NCBI GenBank assembly: GCA_947629315.1
Contig: CANRDB010000001.1
Span: 4,829 to 68,828, forward strand
Reading direction: 5' to 3'
Length of the DNA: 64,000 bases
Origin: an uncultured Bacilli bacterium
Lineage (GTDB): Bacteria; Bacillota_I; Bacilli_A; RF39; UBA660
Position 1 is the stretch's first letter. Each line of letters starts with the position of its first letter. A model generated the notes under the pieces. That model saw only the letters and a list, made by a program, of their open reading frames with translations. It had not been told where the DNA came from and did not search any database. Shown here one piece after another: positions 23,264-26,115 of the stretch. The position numbers and the translations under genes are program-made.

Positions 23264-23288
23264 CTGAACCTTATCTGTTTGTCAAAAT
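23250..23288. other. attL of IE-2
   Basis: cctaccGGAGCAACTGaaccttatctgtTTGTCAAAAT. The 10-nt core GGAGCAACTG is shared with attR2, and the arm overlaps the Rec2 stop codon. Confidence 0.7.
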
Positions 23289-24784
23289 ATCCACTCTATA
23301 GTAACTACTCTTTTTCCCTGTTCTATATTGCCAATTTGTATTCGTTGAATAAAATTCTTTACCGTCTTAAGGGAAAGTTCAAGTTTTCTTTTAGAAAAAG
23401 AAAATGACATTTGTTCTTTTTTCATATTGGCAAGAGTATTTGATAACTTCTCTAACTCTTTGATATAACTTTTTTTGAGATTTTGAAAAACCTCATCATC
23501 TAGTTGTTGTTGAACATAATCGTCATACACTTTTTTTAAGCCTCGTTCTTTTTGATGGTAATCTTTTTCTAATCGTTCAAATTCTTTCTTATATAATAGA
23601 TTCTGTTCTATACTATATTGCTTCTCATATTCTAAAAGCAATTGTTCGTCGACAAATTGATGATAAAACTTCAAAAATTCTTTGAACACTAAAGATTCTA
23701 TCACATCCAAACGAATAGAGGTATGATTATCACAATGTTGCCAATAACTTCTTCTATCACGACAAACTAAATACGAATACACAGAATGGCTAGAAGAATT
23801 TTTTTCAAAGGATTGTCCACATTTTTGACAATATATTTTTTTACTAAACTCATAAATTTTACCCGTTTTAGATTGAATTCTCGTCTTTTGTTGCATTCTT
23901 CTTTGTACCTCATTCCACATCGATAAAGAAATAATCGGGTCATGCTGATGAGATACAACAATCCAATCCTTTTTTTGAAGAGAAATTACCTTTTTATTTT
24001 TATAGGAAATTTTTCGATATTTTCCCTGTACTACACTACCAATATACACTTCATTTTTTAAAATATCTGCAATTGTTTTTTCACTCCATTGATTACTAGT
24101 CGATGGTCCATAATATTTAGAACCTATTTCTTTTTTATATTGACTGGGAGTTGGAATCCCTTGATGATTCAAACACTGCTTAATTTTAGAATATCCATAA
24201 CCTTTCGCATATAACGCATATATTTGTTGAACATATTTAGAAGCAATCGGGTCAATTTCTAAATGATTTTTATCTTTCTTTTGGTAACCAAAAGGCGCAA
24301 AAGAACCGGTAAATAGACCAACTTCTTTTTTATTTCGTAATGTTTTACGAATATTTATAGAAGAATCTTCCAAATACCATTCATTCATCAAAGCATTGAT
24401 TTGTCTGGTTTTTTTATTTTCTTCTACAGAGGTATCAGCATGATCAACTAAACTGATAAAACGAACGTTCCACTCTTTAAATTTATTATGAATATATTGT
24501 TCAATTACTTCTAAATCTCTCGAAAAGCGAGACTGACTCTTACATAATACAATATCAATATTTCCTTGTTCACAATCTTTTAGCATGCGGATAAAAGCTG
24601 GTCTTTCTCTATCGATACCAGAGTAATCCTCATCAATATAAATATCAAAGATATCCCATCCTTCTTCTTGAACTTTTTGAAGTAACATTCTCCTTTGATT
24701 TTGAATACTTTCACTAAAGTCTTTTTTATCAATATCTTCTTTGGATAATCGCAAATAGATTGCTACTCTATTGTTCCCTATCAT
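23282..24784 (-). CDS. Large serine recombinase Rec2 (close paralog of Rec1)
   Basis: [36 protein letters not shown] (near-identical in Rec1), zinc ribbon CQKCGQ...[11 protein letters not shown], and the tail VVTIEWIF. The ORF track extends to 24796. MIGNNR at 24784 has the better SD (GAGGA). Confidence 0.9.
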
Positions 24785-24866
24785 AAGATTCCTCATTTTG
24801 AGAAAGAATTTCTTGTTCTAATACCGCCAACAACTGACGATTAAAAGTTTCTTTCCTTTGTTCCAT
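24768..24866 (-). CDS. Possible 32-aa ORF overlapping the Rec2 start
   Basis: Own translation: [32 protein letters not shown], with a GAGGAAAAG SD upstream. Too short to be sure it is expressed. Confidence 0.2.
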   Translation of the reverse strand: MEQRKETFNRQLLAVLEQEILSQNEESYDREQ

Positions 24867-24983
24867 AGACTTTTCCTCATCATGGAATACATTGATTATT
24901 TCAATATTATATTTCATATTTTCACCATTACAAAATATGAAAAAAAGCGAAGATTTATATCTCCACTTCTTTCTCCTGCAAAA

Positions 24984-26012
24984 TCATTTTCGCTGTTGGC
25001 TAATATCTAATACCCATAAAATATTCGATGGTAGAATACTTCCACAATACGAGCATATCTTATCAAAGAGTCCCACATTGGCGCCACAATTGTGACATTT
25101 TTTCACACTATTCATCGTAAACTTCGGATAATAATTTTGATTACGAATCAAGGTTACTGTTTCTTTTCCCTGCACTTTTTTGATGCGACCATTGCGTTCA
25201 AAATACTTTCGAATAATAAAAGTAATTCGAATGGCAGGAATATTCCCCTTCTTGATAACTTTATAAGTATCATACTCTAAAATTTCAAAATCTACTAAAT
25301 CTTGATATTGAGGAAAAATTTTCTCATCATAGTAATGCACCAACAATTGGTAATTTAAATCTTGAATAATCTTTTGATTACTCATCCGAACTTTATCAAT
25401 CATAATTCTATCATTCCTTAAGTCACGATAGGTAATCACTTTTACCAAAAGATAAGGAATCAAAAGAAAAGTATACAATAGATGAAGAGTAAATAGCATA
25501 ACAGGTAGTGTCACGAACATCAACATAACGGCAATAAACCAAGGATACTCTCCTGACTGTAAAGTTCCCATAAACGATATACCTGTCAAAATCATGCAAG
25601 TGCTTCCCAAAAAGATTTTATACTTTTTCATAGAAAAAATCTGTTTAAAGGATTGTGTCAAATTTTTTTGATGAACTCCCTGTTCTAAATAAAAAGAAGC
25701 TCCACAATAAGGGCAACCATCGTAAAACTCTTTTTCAGTAGCATGATATCCACATTCAGAACAAGTAAATTCATTATCCCCTCTAGATAATGTCATTGTA
25801 TAAGTTATGTTATCATCAAATTTCTTTTCACGATAAAGACGTTTTCCACCTTGATAATAATTTTTCTCTATCTTATTAGCTTTATAAACAGAATCGTTTC
25901 GGTTTCCATTTAAAGTACGAACAAATAACTGATCTTTATGTCGAAAAATCTCCTCTACTACAAGATTCTTTTTAGCAAGTCTTTGTAAATGCATTTGTAA
26001 AGGACTTGGCAT
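24984..26012 (-). CDS. Membrane protein with two zinc ribbons (IE-2 cargo)
   Basis: CSECG..CPYCG near the N-terminus, at least 3 TM helices, and a C-terminal CHNCG..CSYCG. Confidence 0.6.
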   Translation of the reverse strand: MPSPLQMHLQRLAKKNLVVEEIFRHKDQLFVRTLNGNRNDSVYKANKIEKNYYQGGKRLYREKKFDDNITYTMTLSRGDNEFTCSECGYHATEKEFYDGCPYCGASFYLEQGVHQKNLTQSFKQIFSMKKYKIFLGSTCMILTGISFMGTLQSGEYPWFIAVMLMFVTLPVMLFTLHLLYTFLLIPYLLVKVITYRDLRNDRIMIDKVRMSNQKIIQDLNYQLLVHYYDEKIFPQYQDLVDFEILEYDTYKVIKKGNIPAIRITFIIRKYFERNGRIKKVQGKETVTLIRNQNYYPKFTMNSVKKCHNCGANVGLFDKICSYCGSILPSNILWVLDISQQRK

Positions 26013-26075
26013 ACTATCACACTCCTACTATTCTCATTATAACAAAAAAAGTCCTCATCACAACTATTTTTTTCT

Positions 26076-26115
26076 ATTTTGACAATGAACTATGGAGCAA
26101 CTGGTCCAGTAGGTC
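26076..26115. other. attR of IE-2
   Basis: ATTTTGACAAtgaactatGGAGCAACTGgtccagtaggtc. Confidence 0.7.

Follow-up and report, generated by a model that had tools for sequence, protein, structure and literature searches.

The window, the 64,000-nucleotide stretch of contig CANRDB010000001.1 from an uncultured Bacilli bacterium that was analyzed here, contains a collagen-like host gene cut into four pieces (A to D) by three elements, IE-1, IE-2 and IE-3. Our subject is IE-2, a 2,837-bp element with its own large serine recombinase, Rec2. The locus is laid out as follows.

18448-18701, plus strand: host gene piece A, with the start codon, the N-terminal domain and the first Gly-X-Y repeats, ending in GGAGCA-AC.
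18702-23147: IE-1, 4446 bp, with an Acyl_transf_3 gene (18743-20977, minus strand) and the gene for Rec1 (21123-23120, plus strand).
23148-23264, plus strand: host gene piece B, a 117-bp stretch of in-frame Gly-X-Y repeats that separates IE-1 from IE-2.
23265-26101: IE-2, 2837 bp, its boundaries set by a crossover at AC.
26102-26146, plus strand: host gene piece C, a 45-bp stretch of in-frame Gly-X-Y repeats that separates IE-2 from IE-3 and is followed by an apparent TAA end.
26147-29443: IE-3, 3297 bp, with a 464-amino-acid coiled-coil surface-type open reading frame (ORF) (26257-27651, plus strand) and the gene for Rec3 (27831-29420, plus strand).
29444-29834, plus strand: host gene piece D, with the remaining Gly-X-Y repeats, the conserved C-terminal domain and the stop codon.

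IE-2 consists of three minus-strand ORFs, encoding Rec2, a 49-amino-acid protein and a 342-amino-acid protein, and has a GC content of 30.1%, compared with 33.9% for the window. Its two ends carry an exact direct repeat of 10 nucleotides (nt), GGAGCAACTG, and a pair of inverted arms.

23257-23266, plus strand: attL2 core GGAGCAACTG, with the putative crossover dinucleotide AC at 23263-23264.
23279-23289, plus strand: left attP arm TTGTCAAAATA, 14 nt from AC, overlapping the Rec2 stop codon.
26075-26085, plus strand: right attP arm TATTTTGACAA, 14 nt from AC.
26094-26103, plus strand: attR2 core GGAGCAACTG, with AC at 26100-26101.

Joining the ends of IE-2 gives a putative attP site, TATTTTGACAA-tgaactatggagca-AC-tgaaccttatctgt-TTGTCAAAATA, that is, TATTTTGACAA-N14-AC-N14-TTGTCAAAATA. 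A perfect inverted run of 11 nt lies 14 nt to either side of AC, and 19 of the 30 flank positions are complementary. An earlier, model-made reading of this DNA (here called the initial annotation) had proposed a 10-nt core shared by the junctions and perfect 10-nt arms in a 14+AC+14 arrangement. The core is indeed exact at both ends, and the spacing and symmetry of the arms stand, with the single correction that the perfect run is 11 nt long. Among 200,000 random position pairs drawn from this window, a dyad score of at least 19 occurred with a frequency of 8.5e-5 and an inverted run of at least 10 with a frequency of 3e-5; a run of at least 11 did not occur. The reconstructed junctions are …GGTCCTACCGGAGCAACTGGTCCAGTAGG… for attB2 and …TGAACTATGGAGCAACTGAACCTTATCTG… for the circular attP2, and the target, …GGTCCTACCGGAGCA-AC-TGGTCCAGTAGGTCC…, lies inside the Gly-X-Y repeat region. 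Inverted repeats centered on a 2-bp crossover, together with a short core common to attL and attR, are characteristic of a serine-integrase attP, and both are present here.

The same ends are found in other genomes, whose loci are referred to by number below. Three contigs of the same species (L002, L092 and L093), from independent metagenome samples, have identical junctions, all in the integrated state. Two contigs of the metagenome-assembled genome (MAG) GCA_947632115.1, L001 and L094, overlap by 77 nt and together hold a 2831-bp IE-2-type element in the orthologous gene; identity to the window is 86% for Rec2, 80% for a 349-amino-acid ORF corresponding to the 342-amino-acid ORF and 71% for the small ORF. 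In a third species (L011), whose enolase and GerM are 95% and 66% identical to those of the window, the orthologous gene contains a 5016-bp IE-2-type element with a recombinase of 49% identity and a 343-amino-acid ORF of 74% identity, plus extra cargo comprising uracil phosphoribosyltransferase and permease genes. The elements of the window, L001/L094 and L011 have the following features in common.

Right end: ATTTTGAC(A/T)ATGAACTATG(G/A)A(G/A)CA-AC.
Left end: TG-N12-T(T/A)GTCAAAA.
Distance from AC to either arm: 14 nt.
Recombinase gene: next to the upstream host piece (left end), in antisense orientation relative to the host gene.
Target: GGTCCTACNGGAGCA-AC-TGGTCCA(G/A)T(A/C)GGTCC.

The attL and attR sites of L011 and of L001/L094 share only CAACTG or GCAACTG (the core shrinks to CAACTG in L011), which confines the crossover to those bases. 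The arms differ in a paired manner, reading TTTTGACAA and TTGTCAAAA in the window but TTTTGACTA and TAGTCAAAA in L001/L094, so that the dyad is preserved, as expected for two half-sites bound by one protein. Identical ends and an AC center in L011 and L001/L094 bear out the initial annotation's view of a discrete element that recombines at the AC of GCAACTG through a large serine recombinase. Relatives with different boundaries had been named there as grounds for abandoning this view, and the boundaries are the same in L002/L092/L093, in L001+L094 and in L011.

These data also bear on the simplest alternative, namely, that there is no element at all and that a recombinase gene merely lies between two collagen-like genes, amid chance repeats of collagen-like sequence. 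Repeats are certainly abundant. GCAACTGG-type motifs recur in the repeat region, a third exact copy of GGAGCAACTG at 18694 forms the IE-1 left junction, and 14 matches to GGAGCAACTG with at most 1 mismatch are present in the window, compared with 1.7 expected (0 of 100 shuffles reached 14). With 5 exact copies, the 10-mer of the arms is itself frequent in a window so rich in AT, and hence the attP signal lies in the mirrored placement of the arms, not in their presence. However, mirrored arms equidistant from AC have a frequency below 1e-4, the same ends occur in two other species, and the host pieces join into one full-length homologue (see below). This alternative is effectively refuted. We conclude that IE-2 is very probably a large-serine-recombinase element with the boundaries given above; as far as sequence can test, it appears to have all the properties of a serine-integrase integrative element.

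The recombinase gene lies on the minus strand at the left end of IE-2, as the initial annotation had it.

23282-24796, minus strand: Rec2, a large serine recombinase of 504 amino acids counted from the first ATG, its 3′ end abutting attL2.

The ORF is open and full length, and its coding sequence lies 17 bp from the crossover. Translation more likely starts at the ATG at 24784, which has GAGGAA ahead of it. The protein matches the Pfam families Resolvase (PF00239; E, 6.4e-24), Recombinase (PF07508; E, 2.2e-23) and Zn_ribbon_recom (PF13408; E, 1.4e-9), as well as the PHROG 95 integrase family (E, 6.5e-98); DUF4368 (PF14287) was not found in the Pfam domain search. Among solved structures, SPbeta SprA/YokA comes closest (E, 1.8e-15), the YLRxS active-site motif being aligned between the two, and the N-terminal catalytic domain resembles TnpX (PDB 2mhc; E, 3e-13). 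The match to the XisF family is weak, at 85 bits against a cut-off of 375 bits. An exact look-up of Rec2 in the protein collection returned no record, so this collection does not include the genome of the window itself; the same species is represented only by the short contigs L002, L092 and L093. Neither Rec2 nor the 342-amino-acid ORF had relatives among metagenome and viral contigs, and the best matches in phage and plasmid collections were at most 40% identical.

Rec1 and Rec2 do contain the identical runs reported initially, including IHNKFKEWN(I/V)RFIS, but to call them close paralogs is too strong. By BLASTP, they are 54% identical over the N-terminal 231 amino acids and 29% identical over the C-terminal part. 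Region by region, identity falls from 59% in the catalytic domain to 40% in the recombinase domain, 36% in the zinc ribbon and 24% at the C terminus, and Rec1 has an extra insert of ~145 amino acids relative to Rec2. Rec3 is 30% identical to Rec2.

We next consider the host gene. The N-terminal 85 amino acids of piece A are 62-71% identical to those of orthologues. Intact members of this family are 170-210 amino acids long and have a second conserved domain after the repeats, a domain that is not present after piece C. Using tblastn, we located the missing C-terminal domain at 29688-29825 (E, 6.6e-22; 83% identity to the homologue consensus); piece D is 75% identical to its L011 counterpart. 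Since IE-3 separates the C-terminal domain from the rest, a full-length homologue is obtained only once all three elements are removed; the initial annotation of IE-2 did not mention this third cut. In-silico removal of IE-1, IE-2 and IE-3 at AC yields a 268-amino-acid protein with the conserved C-terminal domain and a Gly-X-Y register that is unbroken from about residue 83 to about residue 222; removal of IE-2 joins pieces B and C in frame. All three crossovers coincide with codon positions 1-2 of an ACT (Thr) codon (18700-18701, 23146-23147, 23263-23264, 26100-26101, 26145-26146 and 29442-29443), so that any combination of pieces A to D would preserve both the reading frame and the Gly-X-Y register. 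No decay is seen in pieces B, C and D, which are intact even though they have no promoter or start codon of their own, and this absence of decay argues that the rejoined gene is still under selection.

The neighboring elements have arms of their own, TTTGTGGTTTATG and CATAAATCACAAA at 11 nt to either side of AC in IE-1 and GTGCCACTTT and AAAGTGGCAC at 12 nt to either side of AC in IE-3. For IE-3, a crossover at the palindromic dinucleotide GC was considered and rejected, because only AC gives both the symmetric 12+12 spacing and the unbroken Gly-X-Y register. The ORF at 30961-31899, which tblastn matched as a possible second collagen-like gene, was also rejected; it encodes a Pro/Ala-rich membrane protein.

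The choice of target can be related to the nature of the host gene. The target sites are intrinsically dyad symmetric, at 14-19 of 30 positions. Strings of GGN-CCN-ACN codons are nearly identical on both strands, and collagen-type repeats would thus supply ready-made dyad sites for serine integrases. The collagen-like gene family is a hotspot for recombinase elements. The sites are not as alike as initially stated, however. The original description of attB2 as nearly the same as attB1 does not hold beyond a common central 14-mer, GGAGCAACTGGTCC, with ~26 of 39 positions matching overall by hand count. Each element family has its own preferred flanks, TGGTCCA-T-GGTCC for IE-2 and TGGTCCTA-GG for IE-1.

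On the host coding strand, the center of every target is AC. In the direction of the respective recombinase gene, the center reads GT in IE-2 but AC in IE-1 and IE-3. In serine-integrase recombination, polarity is determined solely by the central dinucleotide when this is non-palindromic, as established for Bxb1 and phiC31. By this rule, the GT center of IE-2 predicts insertion in the orientation opposite to that of IE-1, and the IE-2-type orientation is the same in both relatives (L011 and L001/L094). The rule was applied correctly when the inverted insertion of IE-2 was first attributed to it; the argument is sound and consistent with the data, but it restates the geometry of the locus and is not independent proof.

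The remainder of IE-2 contains two further ORFs and their putative expression signals.

24768-24917, minus strand: 49-amino-acid acidic ORF, overlapping the Rec2 start.
24940-24973, minus strand: terminator-like hairpin and T-run between the 342-amino-acid ORF and the small ORF/Rec2 pair, with CATATTTTGT directly after.
24984-26012, minus strand: 342-amino-acid cargo ORF, with an N-terminal beta-rich region and zinc ribbon, two long membrane helices, a cystatin/NTF2-like domain and a C-terminal zinc ribbon.
26036-26063, minus strand: sigma-70-like promoter, TTGTGA-16-TATAAT with a TG extension (a consensus match only), upstream of the 342-amino-acid ORF.

The family of the 342-amino-acid protein has only 4 other members among 5.8 billion proteins, all from this group of gut Bacilli. 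Where the junction is visible (L011 and L094), these homologues adjoin the right att end; L092 and L093 belong to the window's species, and the junction of L095 lies off the contig. At 74% identity between the window and L011, this ORF is about as conserved as the neighboring host genes. The 49-amino-acid ORF is kept in L001 and is also present in L002, L092 and L093. It is the only small-protein candidate in IE-2 for a recombination directionality factor. Such factors share no common fold (PMC12286644), and homology therefore cannot decide the identity of this ORF. A clearer terminator hairpin stands at the equivalent place in L001. No sigma-70-type promoter was recognized between the terminator and the small ORF/Rec2 pair; a CATAT box ~20 nt upstream of the start codon of this pair is conserved in L001 and L011 and fits neither the sigma-E nor the sigma-K consensus cleanly. 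IE-2 contains no phage structural, replication or lysis genes, the integrase being the only convincing PHROG match, and there is no mobilization gene among its three ORFs and no oriT.

We tentatively favor an explanation in which excision of IE-2 is developmentally programmed and rebuilds a spore gene, in the manner of skin, SPbeta and gin; we regard its chances as roughly even, or slightly short of that. The same logic, with serine recombinases, has been described for skin, SPbeta/spsM, vfbin, gin and skinCd (PMC4191935, PMC5595907, PMC5025042). IE-2 would be a minimal non-phage element of three genes that is mobilized by its own recombinase. It would have entered by conservative recombination between attP and a target in the Gly-X-Y repeat region, the AC center fixing its orientation such that Rec2 came to lie antisense to the host gene. 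For excision, Rec2 dimers on attL2 and attR2 would make a 2-nt staggered cut at AC, and subunit rotation and religation would release a 2837-bp circle and rejoin pieces B and C in frame, probably with the assistance of a directionality factor. All three elements, each with its own recombinase and arms, would have to leave for the 268-amino-acid protein to be rebuilt. IE-2 would remain silent in the germ line and be removed in the terminally differentiating mother cell during sporulation, leading to a spore-surface collagen-like protein. The anatomy of IE-2, its boundaries, their conservation between species and the in-frame restoration of the gene are shown by the sequences, whereas we infer that Rec2 is catalytically active, that excision calls for a directionality factor and which protein this would be, and, most of all, that the timing is tied to sporulation.

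Several lines of evidence point in this direction. Genes of the spoIIIAH-like and GerM-like (Germane) kinds lie in the window, ~4-6 kb ahead of the start of the host gene, and syntenic relatives carry GerE, SpoIIIAH and GerM; judged by these genes, the host organism is predicted to be an endospore former. L097 has an intact orthologue that, together with its GT2/TPR glycosyltransferase partner, is flanked by spoIIGA/sigE-like genes on one side and spoVAC/AD/AE on the other. Some members of the host-gene family carry a BclA_C domain. We compared the upstream regions of the window, L001, L004, L007, L011, L090, L091, L095, L096 and L097. In 7 of these 10 orthologues, a box of the form CATAnnnTA (the sigma-K −10 form) precedes the ribosome-binding site by 5-7 nt, and CGTAnnnTA takes its place in the other 3, the window included. 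Eight orthologues can be aligned over a block upstream of the host gene (18338-18447 in the window) that consists of TTCATTA, ~18 nt and C(A/G)TAnnnTA, the rest of the intergenic region being unalignable; of this block, L096 and L097 have only the C(A/G)TAnnnTA box, at 5-7 nt from AGGAGG on its upstream side. As a sigma-E or sigma-K promoter, the fit is limited to the −10-like CATA box, which is the only conserved part; no convincing −35 was recognized. The integrated state, seen in the three independent samples of the same species, is the stable one. Also in favor are the downstream host pieces, intact and conserved in the window and in L011 despite the divergence of the two genomes, and the lack of a recognizable sigma-70-type promoter ahead of the small ORF/Rec2 pair.

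Other observations weigh against a developmental program. No attB2 or circular attP2 junction was present in the 97 fetched loci, and the right-end pattern matching attR or attP gave 0 matches in JGI metagenome or viral contigs; this lack of an excised form is weak negative evidence, as the window's species is barely represented in the collections. A sporulation role for the host gene is argued from its neighborhood and a short promoter-like box, which in the window reads CGTA, not CATA. The gene adjoins a SecA2-like gene, as would be fitting for a surface protein of vegetative cells, yet by inspection the encoded protein has no signal peptide. The candidate directionality factor had no family match in NCBIfam or PHROG and is absent upstream of the L011 recombinase. 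Finally, IE-2 has moved recently, and the host gene has been lost in part in some relatives, points that lead to the second explanation.

According to this second explanation, IE-2 is a selfish site-specific mobile element with no developmental program, comparable to a small integrative element or to a serine-recombinase transposon in the style of Tn4451/Tn5397. It would repeatedly insert at the quasi-palindromic motif GGAGCAACTGGTCC, which arises from collagen-type codons, and so disrupt a gene that the cell can do without; excision would be only sporadic, with or without a directionality factor. We consider it a serious rival, though less probable than the first explanation. The IE-2 proteins of the window and L001/L094 are 80-86% identical, compared with 39-69% for the SecA2-like protein and other flanking host proteins. 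L094 also holds an IE-1-type element with matching ends. This lies downstream of the IE-2 copy, in the reverse of the order in the window, which indicates independent, fairly recent integrations. (L001 had been taken as a genome lacking IE-1; this was rejected, since the adjoining contig L094 shows both elements in reverse order.) Higher conservation than that of the flanks, combined with an altered position relative to IE-1, shows recent mobility, as for a selfish element. The upp/permease cargo is found in the IE-1-type element of L094 and in the IE-2-type element of L011, and the cargo is thus mosaic. The dyad symmetry of the targets alone could create a hotspot, and the resemblance of the Rec2 N-terminal domain to TnpX also fits a transposon-like element.

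The same gene has received unrelated recombinase elements elsewhere. In L007 (GCA_947626855.1), a different element of 2.6 kb (4330-7010), encoding a 526-amino-acid recombinase and a 211-amino-acid Zn_dep_PLPC-like ORF, occupies an attB1-like position of the orthologous gene. It is followed by 27 bp of host sequence and then by an IE-2-like left end, GGAGCAACTG|cttccTGTCAAAAT, with no IE-2-type recombinase in the next 4 kb. Among the 80 most similar recombinase loci, taken from 185,579 species genomes, collagen-like flanks occur only at L010 (= L001) and L011; the rest represent other elements in other targets. A truncated host gene is evidently tolerated in L004 (10001-12549), L090 (3364-7445) and L091 (8454-10353), where it stops after GPTGPTAR and has neither a recombinase nor the 3′ part, and the gene can therefore be dispensable. 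In these three loci, the truncated gene is followed by upp and uracil-permease genes with ~75% DNA identity to the L011 element cargo, and the arrangement looks like a fossilized element in a dead gene.

Set against a purely selfish element are the promoterless downstream pieces, which are intact and conserved in both the window and L011. The loss of the 3′ part of the gene where the recombinase has been lost is as expected if reconstitution maintains the 3′ part. IE-2 has no mobilization gene or oriT, its center is AC and not the GA of Tn4451/Tn5397, and Rec2 lacks DUF4368. Moreover, three elements in one 0.8-kb gene across several species are easier to explain if they are phenotypically silent, through removal when the gene is needed.

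A further alternative is that IE-2 integrated once and is now an inactive fossil, unable to excise from a host gene that is a pseudogene. Every assembly shows the integrated state only, the neighboring SecA2-like gene has a frameshift, and L004, L090 and L091 hold fossil-like remnants. Nevertheless, the Rec2 ORF is open over its full length and includes the catalytic motif. The arms match perfectly, and the compensatory substitution in a relative shows that the dyad is under selection. Each of the four host-gene pieces remains open and in frame, the C-terminal domain is conserved, and the element proteins are 80-86% conserved across species. We conclude that a fossil is very unlikely.

A reversible vegetative switch, in which regulated gene integrity or phase variation, through excision and re-integration of IE-2 as well as IE-1 and IE-3, toggles a surface collagen-like protein on and off in a subpopulation, is likewise unlikely, if slightly less so. 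Outside sporulation, too, there are integrative elements that switch genes off and on again (PMC7192596). Collagen-like proteins frequently serve as surface antigens, the repeat region gives weak NCBIfam matches of the Scl/Lcl type, and a SecA2-like gene and a glycosyltransferase flank the host gene. On the other hand, neither a signal peptide nor an anchor was seen by inspection, and the intact orthologue in L097 has sporulation genes as neighbors. Three independent excisions would be needed and a lost circle would hardly return, which makes for a poor reversible switch.

Known systems provide a frame for the developmental explanation. In concept, the closest described analogue appears to be gin, in gerE of Bacillus cereus ATCC 10987, which has 31 genes and three recombinase genes and relies on the serine recombinase GirC and the directionality factor GirX (PMC5595907). 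Both gin and IE-2 are non-phage intervening elements with a serine recombinase in a small gene of a spore-former, and both have a short core at the two junctions, an attP-type inverted repeat centered on the crossover dinucleotide and a precisely restored reading frame. In contrast to gin, which is alone in gerE, the 2.8-kb, three-gene IE-2 shares its target gene with two other elements. The excision of gin in sporulation and its requirement for GirX are experimental findings, whereas IE-2 is known from sequence alone; no GirX homologue was recognized in IE-2.

The possibility that IE-2 is itself a prophage or prophage remnant was rejected, as it has no phage genes and no close relatives in phage, viral-contig or plasmid collections. 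SPbeta, skin and skinCd are prophages or prophage remnants of 14-134 kb. IE-2 differs from them in its lack of phage genes, with phage and plasmid relatives at no more than 40% identity, and each of their target genes has a single interruption. The likeness is that excision by a large serine recombinase rebuilds a mother-cell gene: spsM for SPbeta (SprA/SprB) and sigK for skin (SpoIVCA) in Bacillus subtilis, with skinCd as the counterpart in Clostridioides difficile (PMC4191935, PMC5499854, PMC5025042). SprA is the closest solved structure to Rec2, albeit a distant one. SPbeta is inserted at a symmetric sequence in a spore-envelope gene (PMC5595907), and the IE-2 target is likewise intrinsically dyad symmetric.

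Tn4451 and Tn5397 (TnpX/TndX) resemble IE-2 as small non-phage elements with a large serine recombinase, a circular intermediate and a 2-bp crossover. These transposons use a GA dinucleotide, carry resistance and mobilization functions and excise without a separate directionality factor. IE-2 uses AC, is highly specific for one gene family and has neither a mobilization gene nor DUF4368 (PF14287), and its classification as a transposon of the Tn4451/Tn5397 type was rejected on the grounds of dinucleotide, domain and mobilization gene.

The interruption elements of heterocyst-forming cyanobacteria (XisF-type and others), and in particular the multiply fragmented nifBHDK of Calothrix sp. NIES-4101, offer a parallel for multiple interruptions (PMC4874684, PMC11249958). 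There, too, several independent elements, each with its own recombinase gene near a terminal repeat, split one gene or operon, and all are removed in a terminally differentiated cell. Their size goes down to a recombinase gene plus little else, and Rec2 gives a weak match to the XisF family. The phylum and the developmental program are different and many of these elements have tyrosine recombinases, so the relationship is one of analogy, not homology. By extension, IE-1, IE-2 and IE-3 could form a DNA-level "splicing" program, a counterpart of the cyanobacterial nif genes, in which three orthogonal serine recombinases fire in the mother cell and assemble the spore-surface collagen-like gene, and in which partial or hybrid excisions could give combinatorial stalk-length variants. 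We regard this extension as rather improbable.

A literature search turned up no account of a collagen-like gene as a recombinase target or of a sporulation gene with several interruptions, which is not proof of absence; one small gene that needs three excisions was found only for cyanobacterial heterocyst genes. What is new here is a very small element, in a new class of target, that is one of three in a 0.8-kb gene. If excision is indeed developmental, gene-intervening elements would extend to an uncultured lineage of gut Bacilli, to a collagen-like triplet-repeat target (probably spore-surface) and to a three-gene, non-phage format. With three co-resident sets of recombinase and att sites that have distinct arms, the same central dinucleotide and nearly the same target core, the locus could serve as a test bed for serine-integrase orthogonality and for the rule that the dinucleotide alone determines orientation.

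Two further observations concern neighboring and related loci. The SecA2-like gene upstream of the host gene (14652-18366) has a frameshift close to poly-A runs, with the break near 15315-15400, which splits it into ORFs of 238 and 988 amino acids. Its orthologues are intact, at 1124-1211 amino acids, in L001, L007, L011 and L095; the frameshift is either a sequencing or assembly error or the mark of a real pseudogene. In L013 (9587-10793), on contig JAFQSD010000002.1 of a goat-colon Bacilli MAG, a recombinase 46% identical to Rec2 ends ~35 bp from an ORF with Amidase_3 and four LysM domains. This ORF lacks the first few positions of the profile (it begins …PPHGGNDPGA) and may be another gene interrupted by a related element.

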